From an uncultured Gammaproteobacteria bacterium (GTDB lineage Bacteria; Patescibacteriota; Patescibacteriia; Patescibacteriales; UBA12465), in contig CAZDYJ010000003.1 of NCBI GenBank assembly GCA_964509735.1, positions 1 through 54,223 of the forward strand: a stretch of DNA of 54,223 bases, given 5' to 3'. Below the pieces are notes generated by a model. The model saw only the letters and a list, made by a program, of their open reading frames with translations, did no database searches and was not told the DNA's origin. Made by a program: the position numbers and the translations under genes. This document shows, one piece after another, positions 3,001 to 54,223 of the stretch; within the stretch, counting starts at the first letter, position 1; every line of letters begins with the position of its first letter.

Positions 3001-5882
3001 GCATTACATTTTCTAGCATAATTTAAACAAACACTTGGAGCATTATCTTTTAAAGAATAATTTTTACTTGCAGAAATTGTATCAACATAACAAGCTTCTT
3101 CTAAATATCTTGGTAAAAGTTTTTGATTAACCTTATAAGCACCATAAGTACTATAAGCTGTTGACCAATCACCTAATTCAAATTTTATATTTTTAACATA
3201 AGCTACAGCGTTTCCGCCAGACAAATTATCAGCAGTAATTAAGAAGTCAGGATTTGAAAAACCTAAAGGAGAAGAGGCTGTAACTGAAATGCTATACCAC
3301 TGACCACGAGTAGAGATAGAGCTAGTTACTTGTCTATCACCTGGGTTAATAATTAATCGGACATTATTACCTTCGGCCAAATAAACATCAGCACTTAATG
3401 TATAGTTTTGATTGGCTAAAATTTGTAAATTATCAGGGAAAATATTAGCGGTTGAACGAACAGAGCCTAAGCCGGCACCACTTATTTTTAAAACCTTTGC
3501 ACTTACCTGTTCGTAAATTTCATCGGAAATATCAACAATACTAGCACTTCCAGTTATTAACCAGCTGGACAAAAGCCCTTCCGGGGAACTTGGCGGAAAT
3601 AAAAATTCAGAATCAATAATCAAATTACTTCCCCATGTTGGCTTAACGCGCATTAATTCTGTGCATCCCTCAGCCGAAGAATTACAAGATTGTAAATTCT
3701 TATTTAAAAACAAGCTATAATTAGTATCCCAAGTAACTGTACCATTAGCATTATAAGCACCGAAAGTTGAATATCTTTTACAACCAGAGTTGTCGGCGTT
3801 ACAATTTCCGTAATCAATTGTGTTTTCTAAATAGGAAACTGTCTGATTATTAGAGATATTGGTAAATGACTGACAAGTGTTGGCAATCGGAGAACAAGTT
3901 TTATTATTAAATTCCCAAGTTCTCTTTTCCTCAGTACAATACCCGTAAAGATCACAACCGCCGTTTACACCTTCTTTAATACAACTTTGATTATCGGCGC
4001 AATAATTATCATCTCTTAAAATCATTAATTCACTTAAAATATCAGCTGTATTTGGAATATCTTTTATTCCTGGAACAACAAATGAATTTAAAATCTGAGA
4101 ACCTGCTCCTTCCCTTTTGCAATAATTAAGAGGGGCTTTTAGGACCCACTTCGGATCTACTAAACCATGACACCAGGCAAGGTCTCTTTGCTCAAAGTTT
4201 GAACTGAATTTATCGTACTCATCGTTTTGATCAAAGCAAGCAATAAGATCACCCAGGGTAGCATTTTTCGGCTCTTCGCCATCTTTAAAAGCTCTTTCAA
4301 TTGCCACCTCGAAGCCAAGAGGTAAAATACGATATTTTCTTAAAATTTTTACATTTCTTAAAGAAAAATGATTATTTTGTGCACCCGGAGAATAATCATA
4401 TTCTATTTTCCAGTCAGCATTTAAATAACCGTCTTTTATGGCATCGCCAACTGTTTTTTGTTCAATAATTGCTTGCATGAACCTATCATTTATAACGCAA
4501 TTATTTGGACCAGGGTTGTTTGGGTCGATACAGGCAGATAAATCGCTTAAAATACTATAATCGCTTTTGGTGTCAAATTGTGGCTCAAGGAGAATCCTGG
4601 TTTTTTCACGCATTAAAGATTCGCCAAAAGCAAGATTTGGGTCAGCAGCATAATCAGTTAATGAAGCAGAGTCCTTTTTATCGGTTAAACTGCGCATTAA
4701 ATTATTATAAGCAGTAATTGCTAATTGATTTAAAAATATATTAGCCGCATCAACTAAAACATCGCCTGTGGTTTTGCCAAAATTCTCTACTCTAATTGCC
4801 CTGGCTTCAGCCTCAGCTTCTCTGGCTGCTTGAGGTGTTCCTTGAATAATGCCAGCAATATCTCTAACTTCTAACCAACCTTGATTTGCTTGTAATCCGC
4901 TATGAGCTACTGAGGCTTCTTTGGTTTTTGTTTCCTCAAGGTCAACTTGAGCCATCATGTAAATACTTAAATCATTACCTCGAGGATCAAAATAACTACC
5001 AAAATTATTAAAGAATGTTCCATCCTGAATAGATTTTAATTTATTATAATAACCCGCAACCCCATCTCCCCAATTACTAATTATATCTGTTGCAGTACAA
5101 TTTGGATCAGCCGGACGAGTGTAGTCAACCAAGCCTAAAGAAATTTTTAGCTTAGCCTCCATGGAAGACGGCTGACAAACATTAAAAGAATTAGCATCTT
5201 GGCCTTTATCTACAACTCTGGTGGCACCAAAGGCTTGTTGACTAGAGCAATTTGTAGCTGCTTTACCGCATTCATCGTAACAAGTTCCTCTTAGCTGCAT
5301 AGAAGCAAGACCAGAAGTAAAAGTCTGTTCTGGGTATAAAGATGTTGTCTTATTAGTCTTATCCTCCACCTTTTTAACACTAAACCCCGTTAAACTACCG
5401 TTATTATCTTTCTTATAGCAGTCTTCATAACAAGCTTTTGTCATAGCCTCACAGCTTCCTTGTTCACCATCTTTTCCAGAAAAATCCAAATTCTGAACAA
5501 AGTTTTCTAAAAATTGTCCAGCCGCTGCATCTCCGACATTTTTCAAATAAGTTCCCCAGTCTTCTTTTATATAAAGCGAGTCCTGCCCTCTCCCTCCTGA
5601 ACCGATATAACTAGCGGCGTCATAAGCTATTTTATTTAAAGAAGCACTTAAAGTTCTTTGAAATGCTAAAGAGCCAGCCTTTTGAATAGCTTTACCTATT
5701 TTTGTTTCAAAAAAACTTTTTATTGCCTGAGCTAAAGCACCAGGATCAGAAACAACTGCTTGAGCAGATACTTGTCTTGGAGCAATCGAAAAAGAAAAAA
5801 CAATTGCTAAAGCAATAAAAGAAAAAATTGTTTTCTTTAAAAGTCCTTTTTCATCTTTTTTATTAAAAAATCTGACTTTCAT
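1..5882 (-). CDS. Giant exported Cys-rich surface protein; 5' end complete, 3' end runs off the left edge of the window (at least 1960 aa)
   Basis: Hand translation: ATG at 5882-5880 and no in-frame stop down to base 1. N-terminal signal/anchor MKVRFFNKKDEKGLLKKTIFSFIALAIVFSFSIAPRQVSAQA. About 70 Cys by hand count and nine C-x5-G-C-x-x-[YFLM] motifs. Not listed in the ORF track, presumably because it has no in-window stop. Confidence 0.85.
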   Translation of the reverse strand, partial: MKVRFFNKKDEKGLLKKTIFSFIALAIVFSFSIAPRQVSAQAVVSDPGALAQAIKSFFETKIGKAIQKAGSLAFQRTLSASLNKIAYDAASYIGSGGRGQDSLYIKEDWGTYLKNVGDAAAGQFLENFVQNLDFSGKDGEQGSCEAMTKACYEDCYKKDNNGSLTGFSVKKVEDKTNKTTSLYPEQTFTSGLASMQLRGTCYDECGKAATNCSSQQAFGATRVVDKGQDANSFNVCQPSSMEAKLKISLGLVDYTRPADPNCTATDIISNWGDGVAGYYNKLKSIQDGTFFNNFGSYFDPRGNDLSIYMMAQVDLEETKTKEASVAHSGLQANQGWLEVRDIAGIIQGTPQAAREAEAEARAIRVENFGKTTGDVLVDAANIFLNQLAITAYNNLMRSLTDKKDSASLTDYAADPNLAFGESLMREKTRILLEPQFDTKSDYSILSDLSACIDPNNPGPNNCVINDRFMQAIIEQKTVGDAIKDGYLNADWKIEYDYSPGAQNNHFSLRNVKILRKYRILPLGFEVAIERAFKDGEEPKNATLGDLIACFDQNDEYDKFSSNFEQRDLAWCHGLVDPKWVLKAPLNYCKREGAGSQILNSFVVPGIKDIPNTADILSELMILRDDNYCADNQSCIKEGVNGGCDLYGYCTEEKRTWEFNNKTCSPIANTCQSFTNISNNQTVSYLENTIDYGNCNADNSGCKRYSTFGAYNANGTVTWDTNYSLFLNKNLQSCNSSAEGCTELMRVKPTWGSNLIIDSEFLFPPSSPEGLLSSWLITGSASIVDISDEIYEQVSAKVLKISGAGLGSVRSTANIFPDNLQILANQNYTLSADVYLAEGNNVRLIINPGDRQVTSSISTRGQWYSISVTASSPLGFSNPDFLITADNLSGGNAVAYVKNIKFELGDWSTAYSTYGAYKVNQKLLPRYLEEACYVDTISASKNYSLKDNAPSVCLNYARKCNASEVGCELYTGVYSNLKVPAQVASSDYCPKECSGYDLYIARETYFNPAESENIIPSATEKCSQQAVGCNEFTNLDEVAKGGEGREYYVFLKQCIKPDESKCSDYYAWENGGLGDLTRYTLQKGVDGNPLSIGDEETADCSDVYNLPLSDPNYNPDCKQFLTASGASSYRLLSKVVTCSENCNSYRLSNNNIDKNIRSATSCVGNDKHWNSSAAVCYVCKNGGIWDNSQNSCVYQAIPSEGLVCGEKDNGCREYNGSNGNSTRIVSSFDFNQGINPWYSNCSGGVSDSQISNEQNGQSLQYNFGALCGPSEDGVKAKIDFGSYVREGYGYTVRFIARSQVETELRIFLKNEESGEEYYFNSSLSKEDAQVIIKGGESWNIYNVSLENLLKNLGSTGTLNITANAPVIIDDIVITEISDRYYLKKGSSKIPDICYYDNLGNYQGPDYNLGCAQYRDRDNLSHYLHNFSTLCSSNSVGCEQMIDTKNYNSPIGNVWNDTNLNGVCDSGESDCVEVDKDSVVYAIYDRSKACLSADLGCSRMGQASGVGAGLTWSDIFRKNNPNNYDISLCNYSDIGCEEYKMKSGGISYFKDPVNNLCIFRSSNDPLNSSKAWFKVPVKRCDFNSDGLISGLESSGSICASDIDCERGSCITDNNDYECSVSYLKTIGLGGTGGAIPVPNQSTALCEANSSGCTEYIDPVSKFNPNLVRNPEYKVYGSNNVPSWGEDSWMNALVSANEQVVQLERNKLYSFSAKYSTSGTYIAGSELEFARSSVRTLGNDNNFSATPTNSLKLTDSNQPIIFNTFDNYSAKLTRSSNSGVVVEVKELLVDYQIKDSVNKSTCSVTDFNGGCVLFNERSINGASGLSKNVYNASATLDGKSPALSYGPYNANQLLKVNPDRVCAKWLTCTSYGLNTETGHTSCYSLGECNTLDEQNQCANVITYSQGESRVFDPEKDKNASGYALPNMNYYSDIKELGLNTTAHFDFEESVPALSCYKKDVSGE

Positions 5883-5924: not shown

Positions 5925-6593
5925 CTATTCTTCCATTTTAGAAACCATAGCTTCTAAATAAATAGCTTGTAAATCTTCGTCACTTATTAAATCAAGTTGT
6001 TCTTGGCTAAAACCGTTTACCAACATTAACTCTCTTAAAACAGAAATATTAATTTCTCCACTGACAACTGAATTTAAAAACTCCTCATCTTCATTATTAA
6101 CTGATAAAATATTCTCATTTTCTGAGGGTAAATTTAACTGAGTATTGCTAGTAGAAGCAGTTTCGGAAAAATTATCATTTCCGGAACAATTTTCTCCTTC
6201 AGCACACTTGGGATCGCTTCCGTAAACAAATATTTCATCATAATCACTTCGACCATCACTATCGGTATCTTCTAAGTATGGGGAGGTTTTATGAATGTAT
6301 ATTTCATCATAATCAGATAGCCCATCTCCGTCTGTATCCATGCTCATTAAAACGGCCGTATGAAATTCTACAGCTTCTTGTTGACTGGCTGGAATAGCAG
6401 CTTCTCCGCCATAACGAAAAGGAGATCTAATTCGATTAATGAATTGTAAAACTCCTAAAGTTATAAAAAAAACGCCAAAGATAGCCAGAAAAATTACTGC
6501 TATTTTTTGCGTTTTTTCTTTTTTTTCCTGATTTGGATCTCGGCCTTCTTTTAACGAAAAATCGGGCTGATAATTATTTTCCAGCATAATCAA
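5925..6593 (-). CDS. Membrane-anchored protein with thrombospondin type-3-like Ca-binding repeats
   Basis: Single TM segment (IAVIFLAIFGVFFITLGVLQF), then DTDGDGLSDYDE and DTDSDGRSDYDE repeats (DxDxDGxxDxxE). Same strand as the giant ORF and 42 nt upstream of it. Confidence 0.7.
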   Translation of the reverse strand: MIMLENNYQPDFSLKEGRDPNQEKKEKTQKIAVIFLAIFGVFFITLGVLQFINRIRSPFRYGGEAAIPASQQEAVEFHTAVLMSMDTDGDGLSDYDEIYIHKTSPYLEDTDSDGRSDYDEIFVYGSDPKCAEGENCSGNDNFSETASTSNTQLNLPSENENILSVNNEDEEFLNSVVSGEINISVLRELMLVNGFSQEQLDLISDEDLQAIYLEAMVSKMEE

Positions 6594-6615
6594 TTAAAAT
6601 AAAATTTCAATTAAA

Positions 6616-7476
6616 TTATACCATAAAACCGCGGAAGGTCGCAAACATTTTTTTAAAATCTTCTAAACTTAAACGTTCCGCTCGAAGAGATGCTTCAATA
6701 TTAGATTTTTTTAATAATTCTTCCACTAAAGACATCTCTATTTTTAACCCAGCCGCTAAATTATTTTTTATCATTTTTCTCTTGGCGCTAAAAACAATTC
6801 GAGCTAAGCGAAAAAAAATTTTATCCTCGTTAATATTAAAATTCTCTGGTTTTAAAACTATTTTTATAACCGAACTATCTACTTCTGGCTCGGGCCAAAA
6901 GTTACCTGCTTTTACCTCTCTGATAATTTTTGCTTGACCGTAATAAGCAATGGATAAAGCTAATAAATTATTATCCGGTACATCAGAAATAATTCTCGCG
7001 GCCACTTCTTTTTGAAGCATTAAAGTTAAAGACTCTGGTTTTATTTTAGAAGATAAAACTGTTCTTAAAAAAATTGAGCTTATATTATAAGGCAAATTAG
7101 CGACTATTTTAAATTTAGGCACTTCTTTATAACCCGTTTCTGTAAAATATTTTTCTAAATCAAATTTAAGTATATCTTCATTTATAATCTCAATATTAGA
7201 AGCTCCTTGAGAATCAACAGCCATGCGAAGGTAATTAGCTAATTTATCATCAAGCTCAACAGCAATAACTTTTTTAGCCACTTTTGACAATTTAGCGGTT
7301 AAAAATCCTAAACCAGGACCAATCTCTAAAACTATATCGTCATTATTTATTTCTGCGGCCTTAACAATATCGTCATAAATTTTTTCATTAATTAAAAAAT
7401 TCTGACCCTTTGAGCGGCTAGGTTTTATCTCCATTAAACGACAAATTTCTCTGGTTTTTTTTAATATTTCTGACAT
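6616..7476 (-). CDS. rsmA: 16S rRNA (adenine1518/1519-N6)-dimethyltransferase RsmA/KsgA
   Basis: GQNFL, SAM-binding VLEIGPGLGFLT and NLPYNI motifs. Abuts the leuS stop with no gap. Confidence 0.9.
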   Translation of the reverse strand: MSEILKKTREICRLMEIKPSRSKGQNFLINEKIYDDIVKAAEINNDDIVLEIGPGLGFLTAKLSKVAKKVIAVELDDKLANYLRMAVDSQGASNIEIINEDILKFDLEKYFTETGYKEVPKFKIVANLPYNISSIFLRTVLSSKIKPESLTLMLQKEVAARIISDVPDNNLLALSIAYYGQAKIIREVKAGNFWPEPEVDSSVIKIVLKPENFNINEDKIFFRLARIVFSAKRKMIKNNLAAGLKIEMSLVEELLKKSNIEASLRAERLSLEDFKKMFATFRGFMV

Positions 7477-9909
7477 TTATTTAATAACTATGTTTAATAT
7501 TTTAGAAGGAACAAAAATTTTCTTAACAACTTCTACGTTTTTTAAGTATGTCGATATTTTTTCATCAGCCATGGCTAAAGAAAAAACTTCAGACTCTAAT
7601 ATATCAACAGGAACAAGTAAGGTTCCTCTTAATTTTCCGTTAATCTGAATAGCTAAATTAACATTTTTATCTTTAATTAAATCTTCAGAAAAATTCGGCC
7701 AAGTATTTTCAAAAACACTTCCCTTGCCACCAGCTCTTTCCCATAATTCCTCAGATAAATGAGGCACAAAAGGAGACAGTATTTTAATAAACATAAGCCA
7801 GTTTTCCAAACTAAGAGGTGCTTTTAAGTTTTTATTTTTATAGTAAGTAATTTCATTTACTAAAATCATCATTGCCGAAACAGCGGTATTAAAAGCAAAA
7901 TTTTCAATATCTTCTCCCACTTTTTTAATAGTTTTATGAAGAAGTGATAAAACTTTTTCATCATCTTTTTCCGGCTCAATAAAATCAAGAGAAAAATTTT
8001 CAATTTTCTCTAAAAACTTTCTTGTGCCTACTAAACCATTTGAATTCCAATCAACTGCTTGAGCAAAAGGACCCATAAACATCTCGTAAACACGCAAAGA
8101 ATCTGCTCCATGGCTGTCAGCAATATCACTCGGATTAATAACATTACCCCAACGTTTAGACATTTTTCGACCATCTTCTCCCATGATTAAACCGACATGT
8201 TGTAATTTTGTAAACGGTTCTTCATAGGATACTGCGCCAATATCAAATAAAAACTTATGCCAAAAACGAGCATAAATTAAATGTCTAGTAGCATGCTCTG
8301 CTCCGCCAACATAGAAATCAACTGGCGACCAATATTTTTCCTTATCTTTATCAACCAAAGCTTCGCTATTTTTTGGATCTATGTAACGCAAATAATACCA
8401 ACAAGAGCCACCCCATTGTGGCATGGTATTAGTTTCTCGTTGAGCCGGGCCACCGCATTTTGGACAATCTGTATTAAGCCAATTGGTAATTGTTGCTAAA
8501 GGAGATTCGCCAGTCCCACTCGGTTCGTAATTTTCTACTTCTGGAAGTTTTAAAGGTAGTTCGCTTTCAGGTAAAGCCACTACACCACATTTCTCACAAT
8601 GAACAAGCGGAATAGGCTCACCCCAATATCTTTGTCTGGAAAAAACCCAGTCCTTAATTTTATAGTTTATTTTTCTTGTCCCATTTTTTGTTTCCTCTAA
8701 GAAATCAATCATTTTAGAACGAGCTTCGGAAGATTTAAGCTTAGTAAAATCATTAGAATTAATCAGAATTCCGTCTTCAGTAAAAGCCTGTAAATTTATA
8801 TCTAATTCTTTATTTTCTGACAAGATAACTGTTTTTATAGGTAAATCATATTTCTTGGCAAATTCAAAATCTCTTTCATCGTGAGCTGGAACGGCCATAA
8901 CTGCCCCAGTTCCATAAGAATTTAAAACATAGTCAGCAATAAAAATAGGAATAAGTTCGCCGTTAAAAGGATTTACAGCTTTTAGTCCTTCTAAAATAAC
9001 GCCACTTTTATCTTTATTTAAATCGGTTCTCTGTAAATCACTTTTATTTTTTACTGTTTCGACATAAGCTAAAACATCTTTATAATTTACAATCGAATCT
9101 TTTAATTTTTCAACTAATTTATTTTCTGGAGCTATAACCACATAAGTACAACCAAAAATTGTATCAACTCTGGTTGTAAAAACTTTAATTATTTCCTCTC
9201 TATTTTCAATTTTAAAATCAATTTCTGCTCCTTCGCTACGACCAATCCAGTTTCTCTGCATTTCTTTTATTGAATCCTCCCAGCCTGGTAATTTATCTAA
9301 ATCATAAAGCAATCTATCGGCATAGTCAGTTATTTTTAGAACCCATTGGCGCATAGGCTTCTGTTCTACTTCGCTGCCACATCTTTCACATAAACCATTT
9401 TCTAAATCTTCGTTAGCGAGTCCTGTCTGACAAGACGGACACCAATTTATAGGTTCATGAGATTCATAAGCTAAACCTTTTTTAAACATTTGCAAAAATA
9501 TCCACTGTGTCCATTTATAATATTCTGGATCTGTAGTATTTACTTCTCTTTCCCAGTCATAAGAAAAGCCCAATCTTTCTAATTGTTTTTTAAAATAAGC
9601 AATATTATCGTCTGTTGCTTTTTTGGGATGAATTTTATTTTTTATAGCGTAATTTTCTGCTGGCAAGCCAAAAGCATCCCAGCCCATGGGATGTAGAACA
9701 TTAAATCCTTTAAGTCTTTTATAACGAGCAAAAATGTCAGTAGCGATATAGCCTTTTGGATGTCCGACATGAAGACCTGCTCCAGAAGGATAAGGAAACA
9801 TGTCTAAAATATAGTATTTTGGCTTATTTCTGTCTTCTTGAGTCCGATATAAGCCATTTTCCTGCCATTTTTTCTGCCATTTTTTCTCTAAATTCTTATG
9901 ATCGTACAT
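7477..9909 (-). CDS. leuS: Leucyl-tRNA synthetase
   Basis: 810 aa. HIGH-type motif (PYPSGAGLHVGHP), KMSKR (KMSKS motif) and Zn-type CPSC/CERCG cysteines. Confidence 0.97.
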   Translation of the reverse strand: MYDHKNLEKKWQKKWQENGLYRTQEDRNKPKYYILDMFPYPSGAGLHVGHPKGYIATDIFARYKRLKGFNVLHPMGWDAFGLPAENYAIKNKIHPKKATDDNIAYFKKQLERLGFSYDWEREVNTTDPEYYKWTQWIFLQMFKKGLAYESHEPINWCPSCQTGLANEDLENGLCERCGSEVEQKPMRQWVLKITDYADRLLYDLDKLPGWEDSIKEMQRNWIGRSEGAEIDFKIENREEIIKVFTTRVDTIFGCTYVVIAPENKLVEKLKDSIVNYKDVLAYVETVKNKSDLQRTDLNKDKSGVILEGLKAVNPFNGELIPIFIADYVLNSYGTGAVMAVPAHDERDFEFAKKYDLPIKTVILSENKELDINLQAFTEDGILINSNDFTKLKSSEARSKMIDFLEETKNGTRKINYKIKDWVFSRQRYWGEPIPLVHCEKCGVVALPESELPLKLPEVENYEPSGTGESPLATITNWLNTDCPKCGGPAQRETNTMPQWGGSCWYYLRYIDPKNSEALVDKDKEKYWSPVDFYVGGAEHATRHLIYARFWHKFLFDIGAVSYEEPFTKLQHVGLIMGEDGRKMSKRWGNVINPSDIADSHGADSLRVYEMFMGPFAQAVDWNSNGLVGTRKFLEKIENFSLDFIEPEKDDEKVLSLLHKTIKKVGEDIENFAFNTAVSAMMILVNEITYYKNKNLKAPLSLENWLMFIKILSPFVPHLSEELWERAGGKGSVFENTWPNFSEDLIKDKNVNLAIQINGKLRGTLLVPVDILESEVFSLAMADEKISTYLKNVEVVKKIFVPSKILNIVIK

Positions 9910-9928: not shown

Positions 9929-10705
9929 TTATATTTCAAGGCCAACTGGCGCATGATCAGAACCCTCTATTTTATCTAAAATAAAAGAATTTTTCAGTGA
10001 TTTTTTAAGTTTAGCCGATACACAGAAATAGTCAATCCGCCAACCAACATTACGCAGACGAGCCATAGCTCGGAAACTCCACCACGAATATTGAATTTTA
10101 TCACCATTTAAATACCTATAAGAATCAATAAAGCCTTCTTTTATAAATTTTGAAAAAGATTCTCTCTCTTCTTTTGTGTAACCAGACTCTCCCTCGTTTT
10201 GTTTTGGCCTTGCTAAATCAATTGATTCATGAGCGACGTTAAAATCGCCAGTAATTATAACCGGTTTTTTCTTTTCTAAAATTTTAGCTTTTTTTAACAT
10301 TTCTTCATTAAACTCAATTTTAAAATCTAAACGAGCTAAATCAGCCTGAGAGTTAGGAAAATAAGCATTTATTAAATAAAAATTTTTAGTTTCTAAAATT
10401 TGCACTCGACCCTCATCATCAAACTTATCCAAGCCTAAAACAGAAAAATTATCATTTATTTTACTAAGAATGCTTTCTTTGACTAAAATAGCCGTTCCGC
10501 TATAACCAGGTCTTTTAGCGGGACACCAAAATTCTTTATAACCTGGAAAATCGAATTGAGCTAAGGATATATCTTTTTCAGAAATCTTTATTTCTTGAAG
10601 ACATAATATGTCTGGGTTTTCTTTTTTTAAAAAATCCAGGAATCCTTTTTTTAAAACTGCCCTTATTCCATTTACATTCCAAGAAATTATTTTCATATAA
10701 AACAT
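9929..10705 (-). CDS. xth: Exodeoxyribonuclease III (AP endonuclease family)
   Basis: SWNVNG, LQEIK, GDFNV and SDHAPV motifs. The true start is probably the MKIISWNVNG Met at 10696. Confidence 0.9.
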   Translation of the reverse strand: MFYMKIISWNVNGIRAVLKKGFLDFLKKENPDILCLQEIKISEKDISLAQFDFPGYKEFWCPAKRPGYSGTAILVKESILSKINDNFSVLGLDKFDDEGRVQILETKNFYLINAYFPNSQADLARLDFKIEFNEEMLKKAKILEKKKPVIITGDFNVAHESIDLARPKQNEGESGYTKEERESFSKFIKEGFIDSYRYLNGDKIQYSWWSFRAMARLRNVGWRIDYFCVSAKLKKSLKNSFILDKIEGSDHAPVGLEI

Positions 10706-10720
10706 TTATTATGGTATAAT
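10692..10720 (+). promoter_or_regulatory. Candidate sigma70-type promoter with extended -10 for the DsbA-like/por operon
   Basis: TTCATA (10692-10697), 17 nt spacer, then TGgTATAAT (10712-10720), 60 nt upstream of the 10781 ATG. AT-rich background makes chance matches likely. Confidence 0.35.
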
Positions 10721-10780: not shown

Positions 10781-11578
10781 ATGAGTATTTCTGATCGATT
10801 AAATTATGCCCGGATGAAATCTAAGCATCAAAAAATGCTTTTACCTTGGCATAAAAAATGGTGGGGAGTTTTATTAATAATTTTTCTTATTATTCTGGTT
10901 ATAATTGTTATTTTTTCCACTTTCTACGTAATAAACAGAACAAAAGAAATAATTAAAGAAAGAGAGGCTGTTGGACTCACTACTAATACGCTGGTTTATT
11001 TAAGATCTATTGAAGGCGATGGTAGTAATTATTATTTAGGAAAAAATCAATCTTTTTATAATTATTTTCTAAACGCTCAAAATAATATAAACCAAGAACC
11101 GGTAGTTGATGTCGTTGTCTTTAGTAATTTTTCTTGTGCGTTTAGTGCTCAATCATCAAGGATAATGAGATCTATGGCTACTGAATTTGGCGAAAAGGTT
11201 CGCTTTGTCTTTCGTGACAGCCCAACCCAGGATTCGATAGTTTTAGCAGTTGGTGCTCGCTGTGCCGGAGAGCAAGGAAAGTTTTGGGAAATGCATGATT
11301 TTTTATTTGAATTACAAGATGATTTTTCCAGCTTAATTGAAGAAGATGAAAAAAAATTATTTTTAAAACAAATGGCTGAAATACTAGAATTAGATACAGA
11401 AAAATTTAACACCTGCTTAGAAGAAAGAAAGTATTTAGAAAAAATAAAAAAAGATTACGAAGACGGAGAAAAACTAAATATTTCTGGAACTCCAACCTGG
11501 TTCGTTAATGGGCAAGAAATTATTGGTTCTTTAAGTGAAGATTTATTTCGCAATCTTCTATCTGGATTAATTAAATAA
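10781..11578 (+). CDS. Membrane-anchored DsbA-family thioredoxin-fold protein with a CxxS (CAFS) active-site motif
   Basis: N-terminal TM (WWGVLLIIFLIILVIIVIFSTFYVI). DsbA-like layout: VVVFSNFSCAFSAQ ... GKFWEMHDFLF ... ISGTPTWFVNG (cis-Pro loop TP). Confidence 0.75.
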   Translation: MSISDRLNYARMKSKHQKMLLPWHKKWWGVLLIIFLIILVIIVIFSTFYVINRTKEIIKEREAVGLTTNTLVYLRSIEGDGSNYYLGKNQSFYNYFLNAQNNINQEPVVDVVVFSNFSCAFSAQSSRIMRSMATEFGEKVRFVFRDSPTQDSIVLAVGARCAGEQGKFWEMHDFLFELQDDFSSLIEEDEKKLFLKQMAEILELDTEKFNTCLEERKYLEKIKKDYEDGEKLNISGTPTWFVNGQEIIGSLSEDLFRNLLSGLIK

Positions 11579-11590
11579 GCTATTAAAAGT

Positions 11591-12133
11591 ATGCAAGAAA
11601 TAAGAGTTCATGGACGTGGCGGTCAGGGGGTTGTTACAGCCGCCGAATTGTTAGCTATGGCTGCTTTTTATGACGGAAAAGAGGCTCAAGCTTTTCCTAA
11701 TTTCGGAGTTGAAAGAAGTGGTGCTCCAATTCAGTCTTACGCCAGAATTAGTGATAAAAAAATAATTACCAGAGAACATATTTATAAACCAAGTGTTTTA
11801 ATAATTCAAGATTCAAGTTTAATAACCACCACGCCAATATTTAAAGGTTGTGATAATAAAACTGTTGTTATTATAAATGACGAAAAATCAAATTGGCCAG
11901 ATGTAAAAATATTTCCTAGTAAAAAGATTTTTTTCTCTCCGGCTACAAAAATAGCTTTAGAAATAATTGGGAAAAACATTGTAAACACAGTTATTCTTGG
12001 AGCTTTCGCAAAACACACGAATTTAGTTTCTTTAAAATCTCTTGAGAAAGCGATTAAAGAAAAATTTAAAGAAAAAAGTGAGGCAATAATAAATAAAAAT
12101 ATTGAAGCTTTACGCCGTGCTTATAAAAATTAA
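11591..12133 (+). CDS. porG: Pyruvate/2-oxoacid:ferredoxin oxidoreductase, gamma subunit
   Basis: GRGGQGVVTAAELLA N-terminus typical of POR gamma, 180 aa, in operon context with the delta, alpha and beta subunits. Substrate (pyruvate versus another 2-oxoacid) is not determinable. Confidence 0.85.
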   Translation: MQEIRVHGRGGQGVVTAAELLAMAAFYDGKEAQAFPNFGVERSGAPIQSYARISDKKIITREHIYKPSVLIIQDSSLITTTPIFKGCDNKTVVIINDEKSNWPDVKIFPSKKIFFSPATKIALEIIGKNIVNTVILGAFAKHTNLVSLKSLEKAIKEKFKEKSEAIINKNIEALRRAYKN

Positions 12134-12136
12134 TTT

Positions 12137-12400
12137 ATGAAAAGACTTATAACAAAACCAAACAGTTCTTTAGGCAATAAAACTGGTCCTTGGCGAACAC
12201 ATAAACCAATCAGCGATAGAGATATTTGTATTAGCTGTGGCTTATGTGCAAAAATTTGCCCGGAGGCTTGTATTGAAATGGAAAAACTAAAGAATTATGA
12301 GAAGCTAAAACCGGTAACTGATTATGATTATTGTAAAGGCTGCGGTCTTTGTGTTAAAGAGTGCCCGGTAAAAGCAATTCGAATGGAAGAAGATTTTTAA
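12137..12400 (+). CDS. porD: 2-oxoacid:ferredoxin oxidoreductase, delta subunit (2x[4Fe-4S] ferredoxin)
   Basis: Two CxxCxxCxxxCP motifs (CISCGLCAKICP, CKGCGLCVKECP), 87 aa. Confidence 0.85.
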   Translation: MKRLITKPNSSLGNKTGPWRTHKPISDRDICISCGLCAKICPEACIEMEKLKNYEKLKPVTDYDYCKGCGLCVKECPVKAIRMEEDF

Positions 12401-12404
12401 AAAT

Positions 12405-13571
12405 ATGAAAAATAAAATAAAAAAAGAGTTTTTAGAAGGGTCAAGAGCGGTGGCTTTAACTATTTTAAATATTAATCCGGCTGTTGTTTCTGCTTACCCC
12501 ATAACCCCCCAAACTCATATAGTTGAAGACTTAGCAAAAATGAAAGCTGATGGCACAGCTGATTTCGAATACTTAAGAGCGGAAAGTGAATTTGCAGCTG
12601 CCTCTATAGTTTTAGGAGCTAGCGCGGCTGGAGTAAGAACTTACAGCGCTACCAGCTCTCAGGGCTTATTGCTAATGTCTGAGGTTGTTCATAATATTTC
12701 TGGTCTACGCTTACCAGTTGTTATGACTTGTGCTAATCGGGCAATTTCTTCACCAATTAATATCTGGAACGATCATAGTGATATTATGAACCTACGTGAT
12801 GCAGGTTTTATTCAGTTTTTTGCCTCAGATCTTCAAGAGGCAGTTAATCAACATATTTTAGCTTATAAAATTGCCGAGAAAATGAATTTACCAGTTATGA
12901 TAAATATGGATGGCTTTATTTTAACTCATTCTTATGAACCGGTTTTTATTCCATCACGTTCTTTAATTAAAAAATTTCTACCTGATTATAAACCAGAAAA
13001 AGGCACTTATCTTGATCCAAAAAATCCTCTAACTTTAGGAGCTTTCTTCCCTCCCGAATATTATATGAAGACTCGCCAGGACTTACATGACGATCTTTTA
13101 ATTTCCCTTGAATTAATTAAAAAAGAAACAAAAAATCTAAATAAAATAATTGGCTTTAAAAATGTTGATAATGGACTAGTTGAATATATTGGTGATAAAA
13201 AAGCAAAAACAGTTTTAGTAGCTCTTGGCTCGGTTAATGGCACGATTGAAGAAGTTATAAAAAAGATTAAAAATGTTTCTTTGTTAAAAATAAAAACCTA
13301 TCGTCCTTGGCCAAGAGAAGAAATAAAAAAGTCTTTAGAAAAATGTGAAAATATTGCCGCGATTGAAAAGTTTATTGGACTTGGTCAAGCTGGACCTCTT
13401 TACCTCGATTTAGTAGAAACTTTTAGTCAAGAAAAAAAACAAAAAAATATTAAAAATTATATTGTCGGTCTGGGCGGTAAAGATGTTAGTCAGGAAATGA
13501 TTAAAAAAATAATAACAGATGTTCAAAAAAAACATCAGTCCATAGAAGAAGTGGCTAAATTTTTCTATTAA
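12405..13571 (+). CDS. porA: 2-oxoacid:ferredoxin oxidoreductase, alpha subunit
   Basis: 388 aa. N-terminus GSRAVALT...VVSAYPITPQT typical of POR alpha. Confidence 0.9.
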   Translation: MKNKIKKEFLEGSRAVALTILNINPAVVSAYPITPQTHIVEDLAKMKADGTADFEYLRAESEFAAASIVLGASAAGVRTYSATSSQGLLLMSEVVHNISGLRLPVVMTCANRAISSPINIWNDHSDIMNLRDAGFIQFFASDLQEAVNQHILAYKIAEKMNLPVMINMDGFILTHSYEPVFIPSRSLIKKFLPDYKPEKGTYLDPKNPLTLGAFFPPEYYMKTRQDLHDDLLISLELIKKETKNLNKIIGFKNVDNGLVEYIGDKKAKTVLVALGSVNGTIEEVIKKIKNVSLLKIKTYRPWPREEIKKSLEKCENIAAIEKFIGLGQAGPLYLDLVETFSQEKKQKNIKNYIVGLGGKDVSQEMIKKIITDVQKKHQSIEEVAKFFY

Positions 13572-13575
13572 AAAT

Positions 13576-14559
13576 ATGTTTAAAAACCAAAACAAAAAGA
13601 TAAAATCACTGACCATATTAATTGTTTTAGCAATTTGTTTTCTTGGCTTACCATATTTTGTTTTTGCCACTACCTCAACAAGTAAATTTGAAACGCTTTA
13701 TTTTACTCCACAAATTGAAATTCCTAATTCGGGCATTTCAGGAAAAACCTCCCTGTCTGGTGCACCAAATGCGGACGGAGTTGTAACTAGCAATTTACTG
13801 GGAGTCTACATTAAAGCAATTTATAATTATGGCTTAAGTGTAGCAGGTATATTAGCAGCTATAGTTATGATGGCTGGTGGTATTATGTGGCTTACCTCGG
13901 GAGGAGATTCTGGGCAAGTTTCTAAGGCAAAAAGTTTTATTGGCGGTAGTTTAGTGGGTTTATTTTTACTTTTTGGTGTCTATATAATTTTAAATACTGT
14001 TAACCCACTATTGGTTGAGTTAAAGGAATTGCCTACTATGACTATAAAAAGCGTGGTAACAGAAAATGTTTATTGTTGTCACCCGCAAAAAGGTCTTGTA
14101 AATATAAGTGTAAAAAAAATTGGTGATGATTTATTTTATGCTGACAGTAGAAACGAGGTTGGTGGAAAAATTAAAGAAGAAGGAACAAGTTTTTCTGGTT
14201 GCTGGAACGAACTTGCTTCAGAGGATTGTAAACCTGAAGACAGTGCTCAGTGTATTAAAGATGATAAACTAAAAAGTTATGTTTGTATAAATCCAAAAAA
14301 TAAAATCTGCTGTACTTGCACAGTGGGTGATAATTGGATCATGAACAGATACACATCCTGTCGAGAAAATGTTACTCAGGATGAGTGTGATAAATTCTGT
14401 AATGGAGAATTAAAGAAATACGAAACAAAGGATAATAAAACTTATAAGCTTTTTAACAACCTTTACCCCATTAAACATGGTTTATATAAATGCACCGATG
14501 CTACAAAAGGTCAAGTGTGTGATTATACTAGTCAAGGTGGGTCTGGTGGTTCTTGGTAA
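13576..14559 (+). CDS. Exported TrbC/VirB2-like (T4SS-pilin-type) two-helix membrane protein with a 14-Cys C-terminal domain
   Basis: Signal/anchor (LTILIVLAICFLGLPYFVFA). Helix-loop-helix core YNYGLSVAGILAAIVMMAGGIMWLTSGGDSGQVSKAKSFIGGSLVGLFLLFGVYIILNTVNP. C-terminal ~165 aa holds 14 Cys. Start lies 4 nt after the porA stop. Confidence 0.7.
   Translation: MFKNQNKKIKSLTILIVLAICFLGLPYFVFATTSTSKFETLYFTPQIEIPNSGISGKTSLSGAPNADGVVTSNLLGVYIKAIYNYGLSVAGILAAIVMMAGGIMWLTSGGDSGQVSKAKSFIGGSLVGLFLLFGVYIILNTVNPLLVELKELPTMTIKSVVTENVYCCHPQKGLVNISVKKIGDDLFYADSRNEVGGKIKEEGTSFSGCWNELASEDCKPEDSAQCIKDDKLKSYVCINPKNKICCTCTVGDNWIMNRYTSCRENVTQDECDKFCNGELKKYETKDNKTYKLFNNLYPIKHGLYKCTDATKGQVCDYTSQGGSGGSW
13831..13950 (+). 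repeat. 120-nt copy A of the conserved pilin-core coding repeat
   Basis: 108/120 nt identical to 16031-16150 by hand alignment. 38/40 encoded residues are identical. Confidence 0.9.
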
Positions 14560-14604
14560 TAAATTTAATTACCTTATAATCACACAAAAAATTTATTAAA
14601 GAAT

Positions 14605-15483
14605 ATGAAAAATATAAAATCAAAAAAATTCCTGTCACCCGGTCATAATGCTTGTGCTGGCTGTGGACAGTTGTCAGCCGCTCAAGCGGTTATGCGAGCT
14701 CTTAGTCCAGACACGATAATTGCTAATGCGACTGGTTGTTTAGAAGTAACTACGACTGCCTATCCTCAGAGTGCTTGGGGTTTACCTTGGATACATTCAT
14801 TATTTGAAAATGCTTCTAGTGTTGCCAGTGGAATACAAGCAGCTTTAAATAAAAAGGGGGATAAAAAAACAAAAGTAATAGTTCAGGCTGGTGACGGCGG
14901 AACTTATGATATTGGCTTTGGTCAGATAAGTGGCATGTGGGAAAGAGGTGAAAATATTTTATATATTTGTTATGACACAGAAGCTTATTCAAATACCGGC
15001 ATTCAAGCATCAGGCGCAACCCCTTACGGAGCAAGCACAACAACTAGTCCAAGCGGCAAAGATTCCATCGGTTCAACTCAAAGAAAAAAAGACATGATAG
15101 CTGTTGCTTTAGCTCACGGACTAAAATATGTTGCTCAAAGTTCAGCTGGCTTTCCTGATGATATAACTAATAAGGTAAAAAAAGCTTTAGCGACAAATGG
15201 CCCAAGCTACATTCAAATTCTTTCTCCTTGTATTCCTGGTTGGAATGTAAATTATGATGAGGCGGTTATGTTTGGAAAATTATCAGCCCAAACAGGTCTT
15301 TACCCTTTACTTGAATATGTTGATGGAAAATTAAGCTCTTCAAGTATTAGAGAAAACTTTCAAGCTAAGCCCGTAGAAGATTATCTTTTAAAACAAGGTC
15401 GCTTTAAACATTTAAAGCCAAGAGATATCGAGGAAATCCAAAAAATGGCTAATTTAAATATTGAAAAATATAGATTGATTTAA
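14605..15483 (+). CDS. porB: 2-oxoacid:ferredoxin oxidoreductase, beta subunit (TPP-binding)
   Basis: GHNACAGCG cysteine motif and TPP-binding GDGGTYDIG...Y.NTG; 292 aa. Confidence 0.9.
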   Translation: MKNIKSKKFLSPGHNACAGCGQLSAAQAVMRALSPDTIIANATGCLEVTTTAYPQSAWGLPWIHSLFENASSVASGIQAALNKKGDKKTKVIVQAGDGGTYDIGFGQISGMWERGENILYICYDTEAYSNTGIQASGATPYGASTTTSPSGKDSIGSTQRKKDMIAVALAHGLKYVAQSSAGFPDDITNKVKKALATNGPSYIQILSPCIPGWNVNYDEAVMFGKLSAQTGLYPLLEYVDGKLSSSSIRENFQAKPVEDYLLKQGRFKHLKPRDIEEIQKMANLNIEKYRLI

Positions 15484-15487
15484 AATT

Positions 15488-16819
15488 ATGAAAAAAATAA
15501 ATAAAATATTTTCTCTAAGCTTACTGGGAATAATGTTTTTTTCTGTCTTTGCTATATTTTTTCCTCAAGAAATAAATGCGGCCGATGGTTGTTCTAGGAG
15601 ATGTTTACCTTATGCAACAGGAATGGATATTACAACTTTATGTGCAACTACGAGCAATGAAACGTCCGCAGCATATGCGCTTCTTGGCTTAGCCACACCA
15701 GAGCTTTTAACTGATGGGGTCTGCACTGGTCAGCCAAGCATGACTTGTCCGGCTGGTAGCATTGCTGCTTGTTGTTGTTGTAGCACCTGCGCATACACAG
15801 CTCCAGCGCCACCAACTCCGAACACAGCCCAACAATACGCACAACAACAAGTTAACAATTGGGCACAAACTCAAACAATTTCTATACTCCCTAAATACAA
15901 TAATACTCCAGAGTTACAAATAAAATTACCAATTAACTTTGGAAAGGTAAATTGTGAAAATAATGATGATGGTGGCTTTGCTTGTTCAATCTCCTGGATC
16001 GGAGATTATGTTGCTTATGTTTACCGTTACGGCTTAAGTGTAGCGGGAATATTAGCGGCTATAGTGATGATGGCCGGTGGTGTTATGTGGCTTACCTCGG
16101 GCGGGGATTCGGGACAAGTTTCTAAGGCAAAAAGTTTTATTAGCGGTAGCGTTATTGGTTTGTTAATACTTTTTTCTACTTACATGATTCTTTATCAAAT
16201 TAATCCTGGATTAACAGAATTAAATCCTATAACAATTGGATATAAATCAACAGACAGACCTGTTCCTGGTGGAAGTGATAGTGTTTTTAATGCAACAACC
16301 CAATCGTGTTTAAACGATACAGAATTATTTCACGTTGGAGATATTGATAATATTTATATCAAACCAACTTGTTCTGACCCGAGACTATCAAAAACTTCTT
16401 ATGATGCTTTGAAAAAGGCAGCAGAGCTTGCTAAGGCTGAAGGTTTTAAAATTCAATTAAACAGTGCTAACAGGACTTACGAAAAACAGGTTGAACTTTG
16501 GGATAAGGAATATAAAGAACAAAAAGCAAAAAATCCAACCAAAACAGAAGCTGAAATAATTAAAATAACCGGCGGCATTGTAGCTCATCCGGATAAATGC
16601 AAAGCTCCAAATTGTAGTGGTCATTGTGGAGGAGTAGCTGTTGATATTTGTTTATTCGGAACCTCGTCCTGCAATAAAATAGGCGGCCGCACAAATGCTG
16701 TTTACAAAGATGCTCATACTAAAAAATTAGAAGAAATAATGAATAAGGCTGGTTGGGGAAGATACTGTGGAGAATGGTGGCATTTTCAAACAAATCTAAC
16801 AGCCACTCCTTGCTCATAA
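15488..16819 (+). CDS. Exported T4SS-pilin-like membrane protein fused to a VanY/M15-family peptidoglycan peptidase domain
   Basis: Signal/anchor. Cys-rich N-terminal region including CCCC (15770-15781). Core YRYGLSVAGILAAIVMMAGGVMWLTSGGDSGQVSKAKSFISGS...YQINP. C-terminal SGHCGGVAVD (SxHxxGxAxD, 16616-16645) and EWWH (ExxH, 16772-16783). Confidence 0.75.
   Translation: MKKINKIFSLSLLGIMFFSVFAIFFPQEINAADGCSRRCLPYATGMDITTLCATTSNETSAAYALLGLATPELLTDGVCTGQPSMTCPAGSIAACCCCSTCAYTAPAPPTPNTAQQYAQQQVNNWAQTQTISILPKYNNTPELQIKLPINFGKVNCENNDDGGFACSISWIGDYVAYVYRYGLSVAGILAAIVMMAGGVMWLTSGGDSGQVSKAKSFISGSVIGLLILFSTYMILYQINPGLTELNPITIGYKSTDRPVPGGSDSVFNATTQSCLNDTELFHVGDIDNIYIKPTCSDPRLSKTSYDALKKAAELAKAEGFKIQLNSANRTYEKQVELWDKEYKEQKAKNPTKTEAEIIKITGGIVAHPDKCKAPNCSGHCGGVAVDICLFGTSSCNKIGGRTNAVYKDAHTKKLEEIMNKAGWGRYCGEWWHFQTNLTATPCS
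16031..16150 (+). repeat. 120-nt copy B of the conserved pilin-core coding repeat (direct orientation, flanks porB with copy A)
   Basis: See copy A; of the 12 nucleotide differences only 2 change the encoded residue (I/V and G/S). Confidence 0.9.
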
Positions 16820-16851: not shown

Positions 16852-16889
16852 AAAAAAACCTTTCCATTATACATTGGAAAGGTTTTTTT
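16852..16889. terminator. Bidirectional rho-independent terminator between the convergent por operon and rnhA
   Basis: A-run, stem CCTTTCCA (16859-16866) / TGGAAAGG (16875-16882), 8-nt loop, then a T7 run. Symmetric A/T runs allow function on both strands. Confidence 0.75.
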
Positions 16890-42792: not shown

Positions 42793-44118
42793 TTGCTAGT
42801 TAAATTCTTATCTCTTTTTGGAAAAACATCATCCATCATTATAAAAATGTTGGCTTTTTTATCTAGAAAGTTTTTTAAATTTTTATTTTATAATTCTTTA
42901 GTAAAAATTTATTACACAATTTTTAGAATAAAAAGAAACGATTTAGAGGGAAAGCCCTTAAAATTATTTTTAAAAAAAGAAATTAGTGGATTAATTGTTT
43001 TTGCTGTAGCATTTTTTCTAATAATCTCTAACGTTTTTACAGCCCAAGAGAGCGTTCAAGCTGCCAACAATAAACTATCAAAAACAACAGTGGCTAGCTT
43101 AATTGCTTCTGACTTTGATACTGGCATAGAAGAAGAATTAATTGAAGAATTTTTAACTCCAAGTATACTAGGGGCAGCGAAACAAAAAAGCTTAGAAAAA
43201 GATTATCAAGTTGCAGAAAAAAATGACTTAAAAATAGAAGATAATGATAGTTCTTCGGAAGTATTTTTAAGCCTTAATGAAGCTGGGGATTTAGTTTTTA
43301 AACCAAAAAACGTTACAGAGGAAAATAAACAAAACAGCTCAAGTCAAAGAACTGAAATAGAAAAATATATAGTTCAGCCTGGCGATACAGTTTCTACAAT
43401 TGCTGGTCGTTTTGGAATTACAATAAATACTGTTCTTTGGGCTAATAATTTAGGAAATTATAGCATTATTAAACCTGGTCAAGAGCTTACCATCTTGCCT
43501 TATAGTGGAATTATTTATAAAGTAAAGTCGGGTGATACTTTGTCAAAAATAGCTAACACCTATAAAATTAACGACACCGACATATCTGAAAAAAATAACA
43601 TTGATATTAATTTGGGCCTAAAAATAGGTCAGGAATTAATTCTTCCTGGGGCTAGTCGTATAGTAGCTGCTGCTCCAGTTAGAGTAAATCCTGCTAGCAC
43701 CCCAAATACAACGAGCTCGGTTAATAAAGTTCCAAACACTCAATCAAGTGGAGATAATATGGCCTGGCCAACAGAGGGTCATAGGATTTCACAGTATTTT
43801 ACCTGGAGTCATAATGGCTTAGACATCGCTAATAAGGTTGGCACTCCTATTTACGCTGCTGAGGCTGGCACAATTGAAATATCTGCCACGGGTTGGAATG
43901 GTGGATATGGTAACACTCTTTTAATTAATCATGGAAACGGCAAAAAAACTCGATATGGACACTTAACTTCTCTTTATGTAAAAGTAGGTGATAAGGTTAC
44001 TAAAGGAGAAAACATTGGAACCATGGGTTCAACTGGAAGATCAACTGGTTCACATTTACATTTTGAAGTTATTATAAATGGAGCAAGGTACAATCCTTTA
44101 AATTACATTAAATATTAA
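42793..44118 (+). CDS. LysM-domain M23 family metallopeptidase (peptidoglycan endopeptidase)
   Basis: TM anchor, two LysM repeats (YIVQPGDTVSTIAGRFG; YKVKSGDTLSKIANTYK), and M23 motifs HNGLDIA and GSHLHFEV. Start is TTG at 42793 (GGAGG at 42784-42788) or ATG at 42847. Confidence 0.85.
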   Translation: MLVKFLSLFGKTSSIIIKMLAFLSRKFFKFLFYNSLVKIYYTIFRIKRNDLEGKPLKLFLKKEISGLIVFAVAFFLIISNVFTAQESVQAANNKLSKTTVASLIASDFDTGIEEELIEEFLTPSILGAAKQKSLEKDYQVAEKNDLKIEDNDSSSEVFLSLNEAGDLVFKPKNVTEENKQNSSSQRTEIEKYIVQPGDTVSTIAGRFGITINTVLWANNLGNYSIIKPGQELTILPYSGIIYKVKSGDTLSKIANTYKINDTDISEKNNIDINLGLKIGQELILPGASRIVAAAPVRVNPASTPNTTSSVNKVPNTQSSGDNMAWPTEGHRISQYFTWSHNGLDIANKVGTPIYAAEAGTIEISATGWNGGYGNTLLINHGNGKKTRYGHLTSLYVKVGDKVTKGENIGTMGSTGRSTGSHLHFEVIINGARYNPLNYIKY

Positions 44119-44422: not shown

Positions 44423-44496
44423 GGGCCCCTAGCTCAGCTGGTTAGAGCACCTGCTTTGCAAGCAGGGGGTCAAGGGTTCGAATCCCTTGGGGTCCA
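44423..44496 (+). tRNA. tRNA-Ala (anticodon UGC), CCA not encoded
   Basis: Hand-folded cloverleaf: acceptor GGGCCCC/GGGGUCC with the G3:U70 alanine identity pair, anticodon loop TTTGCAA, and T-loop GGTTCGAATCC. Confidence 0.95.
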
Positions 44497-54163: not shown

Positions 54164-54223
54164 GGGCAATTAGCTCAGTTGGTTAGAGCGCAACACTGAT
54201 AATGTTGAGGTCGGAGGTTCGAA
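54164..54223 (+). tRNA. tRNA-Ile (anticodon GAU), truncated by the right edge of the window
   Basis: GGGCAAT acceptor, D-arm GCTCAGTTGGTTAGAGC, anticodon stem-loop CAACA-CTGATAA-TGTTG, and T-arm start GGAGGTTCGAA. Confidence 0.9.

Follow-up and report, generated by a model that had tools for sequence, protein, structure and literature searches.

How do genes for exported, pilin-like membrane proteins come to lie among the genes of a central metabolic enzyme, and are the two kinds of gene held together by anything more than history? The question is raised by a 54,223-nucleotide (nt) stretch of DNA, referred to here in its entirety as the window (contig CAZDYJ010000003.1 of assembly GCA_964509735.1, deposited as an uncultured Gammaproteobacteria bacterium and placed by GTDB in the Patescibacteriota). 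In it a first-pass annotation, made from the letters alone, had noted a block of seven plus-strand genes: a DsbA-like gene, then porG, porD and porA of a four-subunit pyruvate (2-oxoacid):ferredoxin oxidoreductase (POR), a pilin-like gene, porB and a second pilin-like gene. The two pilin-like genes, fifth and seventh in the block, are named pilX and pilY here. Patescibacteria are uncultured, very small and probably host-dependent, and most of their surface proteins have no known function. We find that the interleaving is an inherited feature of a whole Falkowbacteria-type clade with a single origin in the PorB tree, and the account that we hold to be probable is that of a chimeric operon, formed by one ancient insertion of surface genes derived from a type IV secretion system (T4SS), passed on vertically and coupled to POR by expression.

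Recurrence and origin of the interleaved locus

In order to establish how widely the arrangement occurs, one genome per GTDB species was scanned for PorB, giving 80 loci with PorB identities of 54-88%, which are referred to by L numbers. These loci were analyzed by tblastn, open reading frame (ORF) calling and a custom hidden Markov model (HMM) of the helical hairpin core that pilX and pilY share, and the 63 that show porA upstream of porB were taken as informative. Between one and three pilin-core ORFs separate porA from porB in 62 of these 63 species-level loci, the exception being L078; zero counts returned by the HMM for L030 and L038 are ORF-boundary artefacts. Because it recurs in so nearly all informative relatives the interleaving is far beyond chance, and the survey finds the opposite of what the first-pass annotation had named as refuting, relatives with contiguous porGDAB and pilin-like genes elsewhere. 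The same HMM picks out only the two por-linked copies in the window and no core copies outside the por cluster in ∼1.2 Mb of relatives' loci, and for all 70 database homologues of pilX the best match is a por-cluster ORF from these loci. The nearest relative's contig carries the identical seven-gene order between the same flanks. A search for PorA homologues remained within the clade, its 120 best matches (63-97% identity) including no outgroups. The records behind the 80 loci are titled Falkowbacteria, Patescibacteria or Parcubacteria, with several evidently mislabelled. As a side observation, many records with Falkowbacteria-type synteny (e.g. L001, L002, L006, L011 and L022) are titled 'uncultured Gammaproteobacteria bacterium' and one 'Thermoplasmatales archaeon', and the deposited names of these third-party metagenome-assembled genomes look wrong.

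Two arrangements can be distinguished. Group I, to which the window belongs, comprises loci with PorB identities of ∼72% or more; its genes run dsbA-porG-porD-porA-pilX-porB-pilY, a few loci having a third copy, and are closely packed: porA and pilX are usually 1-5 nt apart or overlap by 4 nt, pilX and porB are separated by a median of 9 nt (no more than 30 nt in 33 of 35 cases) and porB and pilY by a median of 1 nt (no more than 30 nt in 33 of 34). In group II, with PorB identities of ∼56-70%, both paralogues usually lie between porA and porB and none follows porB. A conserved pair of small genes, encoding ∼71 and ∼69 amino acids (aa), stands just before porB in this group (L039-L080; e.g. 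L040, 9410-9840), the second matching DUF2283 and the first, which looks DUF4258-like, giving no Pfam match; sometimes RelE/ParE/YafQ-type pairs, a 23S_rRNA_IVP four-helix protein gene and GIY-YIG genes are found there as well. The subclade that includes the window has lost the small-gene pair and the other group II insertions.

Conservation extends beyond the seven genes, and in most of the same loci the flanks are also kept, with genes for leucyl-tRNA synthetase (LeuRS) and exonuclease III upstream and for RNase H, RecJ, LepA and MurJ downstream. In the most distant loci (e.g. L062, L067 and L070-L080) the downstream flank is lost and the por-pilin cluster retained. Two loci are rearranged within the cluster itself. 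In L055 (4854-8467) dsbA-porG-porD is inverted with porA-pil-porB-pil intact, and L058 (3100-10906) has RuvC followed by three pilin-like genes, the small-gene pair and porB and then by rpoC, with porGDA not found nearby.

A neighbour-joining tree of PorB gathers all 75 pilin-positive loci into a single 80-tip clade, whose remaining five tips are loci without upstream sequence. Its sister clade (24 tips), reached by a metagenome scan with the PorB of the pilin-negative locus L078, has no pilin core and keeps a DsbA-like gene ahead of porGDAB, and more distant por operons in metagenomic relatives are plain, contiguous porGDAB. On the evidence of these gene orders the history would have been stepwise, from porGDAB to porGDAB headed by dsbA and from there, by insertion of the pilin-like pair, to the interleaved form. 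The copies after porB form a similarity group of their own and the second group II copy is mostly nearer to that group (12 of 18), so that pilX and pilY are old paralogues and porB has moved relative to pilY. That a duplicated surface-gene cassette was inserted and became fixed, one of the two interpretations offered at first pass, fits both the single origin in the PorB tree and the age of the paralogues. Recent horizontal transfer, or a mobile cassette, was considered and rejected: in GC content (0.34 and 0.38) the inserted genes are like their neighbours, neither repeats nor an integrase were found, and the PorB tree gives a single origin.

Other genes have entered the por operons of the sister clade. 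A gene for a secreted or lipoprotein cyclophilin lies between porD and porA (L088, 2382-3116; L092, 681-1301; L098, 6183-6839), RmlA-like/RmlB-like genes lie between porA and porB (L092, 2450-3262; L101, 3818-5627), the operon of L082 holds an alpha/beta hydrolase gene (4124-5872) and that of L078 ORFs of 505, 100 and 106 aa (6296-8745). Several of these insertions are envelope-related, as is the DsbA-like gene. In addition, the gene after porB in the sister clade often encodes a small, conserved membrane protein (∼125 aa, several hydrophobic segments; L082-L107, e.g. L078, 10981-11358), at the position taken by pilY in the clade of the window.

The seven genes and their products

The coordinates of the genes and of the candidate expression signals are collected in Table 1. 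The gene order and the successive gaps of 12, 3, 4, 4, 45 and 4 nt agree exactly with those given at first pass, as does the splitting of the alpha and beta subunit genes by one for an exported membrane protein whose paralogue follows. The subunit order G-D-A-B is thus kept and contiguity is not, a gene of 984 nt separating porA from porB. Minus-strand housekeeping genes flank the block, those for LeuRS and an exonuclease III-like protein upstream and those for RNase H and RecJ downstream. A promoter-like element had been claimed ahead of the DsbA-like gene and is indeed present, inside the divergent exonuclease III gene at its 5' end; a second match overlaps the stop codon of pilX and the 45 nt between that gene and porB, the only sizeable gap in the block. 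The single strong terminator claimed for the end of the block is borne out by a hairpin between an A-run and a T-run that sits between the convergent pilY and RNase H genes and could be used on both strands. An Rfam search of the region returned no family within the cluster.

Table 1. Genes and candidate signals of the interleaved por block, in window coordinates
Feature	Position	Strand	Basis
Promoter-like site TTCATA-17-TG-TATAAT	10692..10720	+	consensus match 10/12, TG present
DsbA/Thioredoxin_4-like gene, 265 aa	10781..11578	+	Pfam, hydropathy
porG, gamma subunit	11591..12133	+	PF01558, TIGR02175
porD, delta subunit, two 4Fe-4S ferredoxin motifs	12137..12400	+	Fer4 families, TIGR02179
porA, alpha subunit (POR_N + PFOR_II)	12405..13571	+	PF01855, PF17147
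pilX (gene 5), 327 aa	13576..14559	+	orthologues match PF18895, AlphaFold2 model, hydropathy
Promoter-like match TTGGTA-16-TATAAT, 10/12	14553..14580	+	consensus scan
porB, TPP-binding beta subunit	14605..15483	+	PF02775, NF008819
pilY (gene 7), 443 aa	15488..16819	+	VanY match, core shared with pilX
Bidirectional intrinsic-terminator-like hairpin A7-CCTTTCCA-loop-TGGAAAGG-T7	16852..16889	.	scan and sequence

Profile searches against Pfam and NCBIfam back the POR and DsbA-like calls. PorG matches PF01558 (POR gamma; E = 2.6e-40) and TIGR02175 (1.6e-59; 200.7 bits against a cut-off of 81.1), PorD matches TIGR02179 (5.4e-28; 96.9 bits against 60.05) and has two Fer4 stretches and 9 Cys, PorA matches POR_N (PF01855, 5.3e-68) and PFOR_II (PF17147, 1.8e-17), and PorB matches TPP_enzyme_C (PF02775, 2.9e-21). 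The enzyme class, a four-subunit 2-oxoacid:ferredoxin oxidoreductase, is certain. The top NCBIfam models are PorA, PorB, PorC and PorD, all scoring under their equivalog cut-offs (410/550, 354.7/405, 210/225 and 96.7/120 bits, the first being PorA_Arch, the best match of PorA, and the second NF008819, with E = 3.7e-106 for PorB), and because these scores lie under the strict NCBI cut-offs pyruvate, rather than another 2-oxoacid, is only the presumed substrate. Neither hydrophobic segments nor extra domains were found in the POR subunits by Pfam and hydropathy analysis.

The products of pilX and pilY are 54% identical over a 109-aa core that consists of two hydrophobic helices linked by a conserved loop (WLTSGGDSGQVSKAKSFI), and this loop with its flanking helices is among the best-conserved stretches. 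In pilX a signal-peptide-like helix is followed by the two-helix hairpin at residues ∼74-142 and by a C-terminal ectodomain at ∼160-320 with 14 Cys, in columns that are kept across homologues. An AlphaFold2 model built with 22 homologues (mean predicted local distance difference test score, pLDDT, of 73.9) has helices at 5-23, 74-107 and 112-142 and a C-terminal domain that is beta-rich with one long helix, mostly at pLDDT 76-92. A Foldseek search with the model gave no PDB match at E ≤ 0.001, and in this model the Cys-rich domain may represent an undescribed fold.

In pilY the order of parts differs: the signal-peptide-like helix comes before an N-terminal ectodomain rich in Cys, which is followed by the hairpin at residues ∼175-238 and a C-terminal VanY/M15 domain. 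The last is assigned on the basis of the Pfam score (1e-07; 32.2 bits against a cut-off of 25) and of both LAS motifs, S-G-H-C-G-G-V-A-V-D and E-W-W-H (SxHxxGxAxD and ExxH), matches to PDB sequences of VanY-type carboxypeptidases being marginal (phmmer, E 0.02-0.12). In profile score and motifs it resembles the M15B/VanY peptidases, and a peptidase role is predicted. The domain is far from constant in relatives. Among 39 orthologues at the pilY position VanY is recognized in 6, NlpC/P60 in 3, 3D in 3, Amidase_5 in 2 and SLT_3 in 1, so that only about a third carry a recognizable hydrolase domain, and in the nearest relative NlpC/P60 takes the place of the M15 domain found here; second copies in group II include 3D, SLT and SLT_3 domains. 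Taken together, the sequences at the after-porB position (window, 15488-16819; L158, 9870-11048; L001-L055) point to domain swapping on a conserved anchor. The C-terminal domain of pilX and the N-terminal domain of pilY find almost nothing in relatives by tblastn at E ≤ 1e-5, suggesting that the ectodomains evolve much faster than the hairpin. Elsewhere in the window (42793-44118) a LysM + Peptidase_M23 protein, another exported wall hydrolase, is encoded.

The pilin-like calls, for which a profile scan had been suggested, hold in part. The window proteins themselves stay below cut-off, pilY reaching PF18895 (T4SS_pilin) with E = 4.4e-3 and 17.5 bits against a gathering threshold of 26.6, and pilX having no Pfam match and only NF045849, at 6.8e-4. 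Among the orthologous ORFs, 116 of 124 match PF18895 at E < 1e-3 (best 1.5e-10, with the L005 orthologue scoring 30 bits), most database homologues carry the same family, and several are named 'pilin' by NCBI. Because the orthologues match PF18895 the predicted assignment is secure at the family level and weak on the window proteins alone. The word pilin nonetheless overstates what these proteins seem to be: at 327 and 443 aa, with orthologues of 185 to 535 aa, they are not pilin-sized, and the VirB2-like hairpin appears to hold large ectodomains in the membrane.

The DsbA-like protein scores well above cut-off for PF13462 (Thioredoxin_4; 4e-16, 60.1 bits, cut-off 23.2) and PF01323 (DSBA; 1.3e-12, 48.3 bits, cut-off 25.6). 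Its N-terminus is rich in Lys and Arg and is followed by a single hydrophobic segment at residues ∼23-55 in the hydropathy profile, and since the positive-inside rule can be applied to this combination the thioredoxin fold is predicted to face the outside, anchored in the membrane. The active site (residues ∼117-122) is C-A-F-S rather than CxxC. In 70 aligned DsbA-like orthologues there are 55 CxxC, 14 CxxS and 1 CxxT sites, and as the CxxS and CxxT forms are scattered among CxxC forms (orthologues in L001-L108) the resolving cysteine seems to have been lost repeatedly. Such a loss could mean that oxidase chemistry has given way to isomerase or mixed-disulfide chemistry. The description of all three non-POR products as extracytoplasmic and thiol-related holds as a prediction, from putative export and Cys-rich ectodomains, with the qualification that the DsbA-like protein of this genome is CxxS and not CxxC.

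T4SS ancestry and comparison with known systems

The hairpin core is 40-44% identical to that of two proteins of another Patescibacterium that are encoded beside PrgI-like, TraC-like and VirB4-like (DUF87/AAA_10) genes. In the locus L156 (4211-12968) a T4SS cluster with a PrgI-like gene, a TraC-like gene and one for a VirB4-like ATPase is followed by genes for three large proteins, two of which share the hairpin core, one of these being a 744-aa fusion of PF18895 with SLT; the distant core homologue P0070 lies in this T4SS cluster. By sequence comparison the por-linked genes are relatives of T4SS-associated proteins, and a locus of the L156 type is the probable kind of source from which they came. 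The loop motif is common to the T4SS-cluster homologues and hence not specific to POR. A search for T4SS families among the scanned ORFs of the window, and in the flanks of the relatives' loci, was negative.

VirB2/TrbC-like pilins of Patescibacteria (PF18895) and their arrays have been described (PMC12102498), and VirB2-like genes are widespread in Patescibacteria according to a 2025 survey. The window proteins resemble such pilins in having a predicted signal peptide and a two-helix hairpin, with orthologues that match PF18895. They differ in being 3-6 times larger (327 and 443 aa, as compared with a Pfam model of 71 positions and pilins of ∼70-120 aa), in bearing Cys-rich or peptidoglycan-hydrolase ectodomains, and in lying away from T4SS genes, and unlike in the pilin arrays the gene that separates the paralogues encodes a subunit of a central metabolic enzyme.

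A second comparison is with the wall hydrolases of conjugation and T4SS in monoderm bacteria, where membrane-anchored VirB1-like enzymes such as PrgK, TraG of pIP501, CwlT and TcpG are employed. These combine an N-terminal membrane anchor with interchangeable SLT, NlpC/P60/CHAP-like and peptidase domains, as the pilY family does, whereas the anchor of pilY is the PF18895 hairpin and not a single transmembrane helix, and its gene belongs to a por operon instead of a transfer locus.

As for the host operon, the four-subunit porGDAB/porCDAB operons of Thermotoga, Pyrococcus and Helicobacter contain the same four families with the expected domains in G-D-A-B order. What sets the window apart is the gene for an exported membrane protein between alpha and beta, together with the paralogue after beta and the DsbA-like gene at the head, a layout that is clade-wide. 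The DsbA-like protein shares its fold family and N-terminal membrane anchor with DsbA/BdbD oxidoreductases, and most of its orthologues have a CPxC-type active site. It differs from them in that the second active-site Cys is replaced by Ser or Thr in this genome and 14 relatives, and in the fixed position of its gene, which heads a por operon in two sister clades, within a cluster that has no DsbB or VKOR partner.

The families concerned, four-subunit POR, DsbA/Thioredoxin_4, PF18895 and M15/VanY, are thus already known. What appear to be new are the clade-wide, inherited placement of such genes between those for the alpha and beta subunits of POR, and the nature of the inserted members as large, hairpin-anchored ectodomain proteins, one lineage of which has interchangeable wall-hydrolase heads. 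No description of a POR-pilin linkage was found in the literature searched, which lay mostly outside subscription journals.

Explanations for the linkage

The sequence of events that we favor starts from a Falkowbacteria-type ancestor that would already have had a DsbA-like gene before porG-porD-porA-porB. A paralogous pair, from type IV secretion-associated 'pilin-domain' proteins, would have been acquired between porA and porB, and in the subclade of the window porB would have ended up between the two paralogues. The seven genes would be transcribed from a start upstream of the DsbA-like gene to the hairpin after pilY. PorG, PorD, PorA and PorB would assemble in the cytoplasm as a pyruvate (2-oxoacid):ferredoxin oxidoreductase. 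The other three products would be exported, the DsbA-like protein being tethered outside the membrane and pilX and pilY held by the VirB2-type hairpin, on either side of which the chain would lie outside the cell; pilX would display its disulfide-rich domain there, and pilY would act on peptidoglycan (with M15/VanY here and other hydrolases in relatives). The DsbA-like protein could plausibly handle the cysteines of pilX and pilY, though it is a CxxS variant in this lineage. In a small genome with few regulators the envelope genes would, we infer, ride on a catabolic operon that is in constitutive use, and the link between POR and the cell surface is most likely one of expression and not of physical or catalytic partnership. 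Because unrelated genes have been inserted in the por operons of group II and of the sister clade, the operon is better described as permissive than as enzymatically linked to its insertions.

Several points weigh against this account. Co-transcription of all seven genes is deduced from their spacing, and the promoter-like match at 14553-14580, which relatives do not share, may be an internal promoter. In an AT-rich window consensus scans are close to shuffle level, with 31 promoter-like sites where 24.9 are expected and 8 terminator-like sites where 4.5 are expected, so that this match proves nothing either way; the scans were not used for or against internal signals in relatives. In group II the distance from the pilin-like genes to porB is 440-2500 nt and holds toxin-antitoxin genes, and porB there very probably has its own promoter, in which case the unit is not always one operon. 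The conservation of the interleaving could, moreover, reflect slow gene-order change rather than benefit. From the other side, the linkage that is kept through the rearrangements of L055 and L058 and through the different orders of groups I and II hints at more than inertia, and hitch-hiking on a well-used operon does not explain this persistence.

It is unlikely, in our estimation, that the order is a neutral relic, that is, a frozen accident in which each gene is useful in itself, the order is preserved by slow change and internal promoters may be at work. Such a view would accommodate the flanking synteny conserved over the same genomes, the promoter-like matches inside the cluster, the long, gene-filled gaps before porB in deeper relatives and the other, unrelated insertions in sister por operons. 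It sits less well with the survival of the por-pilin cluster where the downstream flank has gone (L062, L067, L070-L080), and with gaps of 1-10 nt and overlaps of 4 nt in ∼35 species, which leave little room for separate signals; junctions as tight as these are typical of maintained co-expression.

The other interpretation offered at first pass, a functional module in which selection keeps the DsbA-like protein, the VirB2-anchored surface proteins and POR together as co-workers, strikes us as distinctly improbable. It comes in two versions: in one, surface or host-contact functions would be made in fixed proportion to pyruvate catabolism, and in the more radical one the hairpin's conserved cytoplasmic loop would draw POR to the membrane. 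The linkage does outlast local rearrangements (L058, L055 and the change between groups I and II), every copy of the core subfamily in the DNA examined is por-linked, gene spacing is tight with frequent overlaps, and the inter-helix loop is highly conserved along with its flanking helices, all as a module would lead one to expect. Yet no positive evidence for it emerged. In the sister clade the same dsbA-por operon lacks pilin-like genes, the POR subunits have ordinary domain content and are devoid of hydrophobic segments, the loop motif occurs in T4SS-cluster homologues too, the same junctions accept unrelated genes, the ectodomains are variable and swapped between close relatives, and it is the whole neighbourhood that is syntenic. 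We are similarly doubtful of the more specific proposal that T4SS-derived, disulfide-rich surface proteins and wall hydrolases are coupled stoichiometrically or physically to POR in the Falkowbacteria-type clade only; were it to hold, those surface proteins would likely be used on the cell's own envelope or on that of a host, and host-contact functions would be tied directly to the main catabolic step.

An artefact of chimeric assembly or binning, or extra ORFs that are not real genes, might be suspected given an uncultured source and pilin-profile matches of the window proteins that fall short of cut-offs, and is rejected as practically out of the question, since the same order recurs in >60 independent assemblies from many studies, closed or near-closed chromosomes among them (CP066698.1, OW818634.1), the ORFs are intact with conserved core and Cys columns, and the inserted genes match their neighbours in GC.

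Evidence of a new mechanism there is as yet none; the gene order is unusual and robustly conserved. The interleaving provides an easily scored, clade-wide synapomorphy of the Falkowbacteria-type lineage, and it demonstrates that a heteromeric core enzyme tolerates long-term interruption of its operon. It also brings to light a VirB2-hairpin-anchored subfamily that has left the T4SS locus and consists of a Cys-rich paralogue and one with swappable hydrolases, making pilX and pilY concrete candidates for factors of host interaction or wall remodelling. If the genes are co-transcribed, por expression seen in metatranscriptomes could stand in for production of these surface proteins, and if the linkage is functional it would tie energy metabolism to cell-surface machinery in a manner that is not described in the literature searched. 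Finally, the window holds two tRNA genes, a complete one at 44423-44496 and a second, at 54164-54223, that is cut by the window end.

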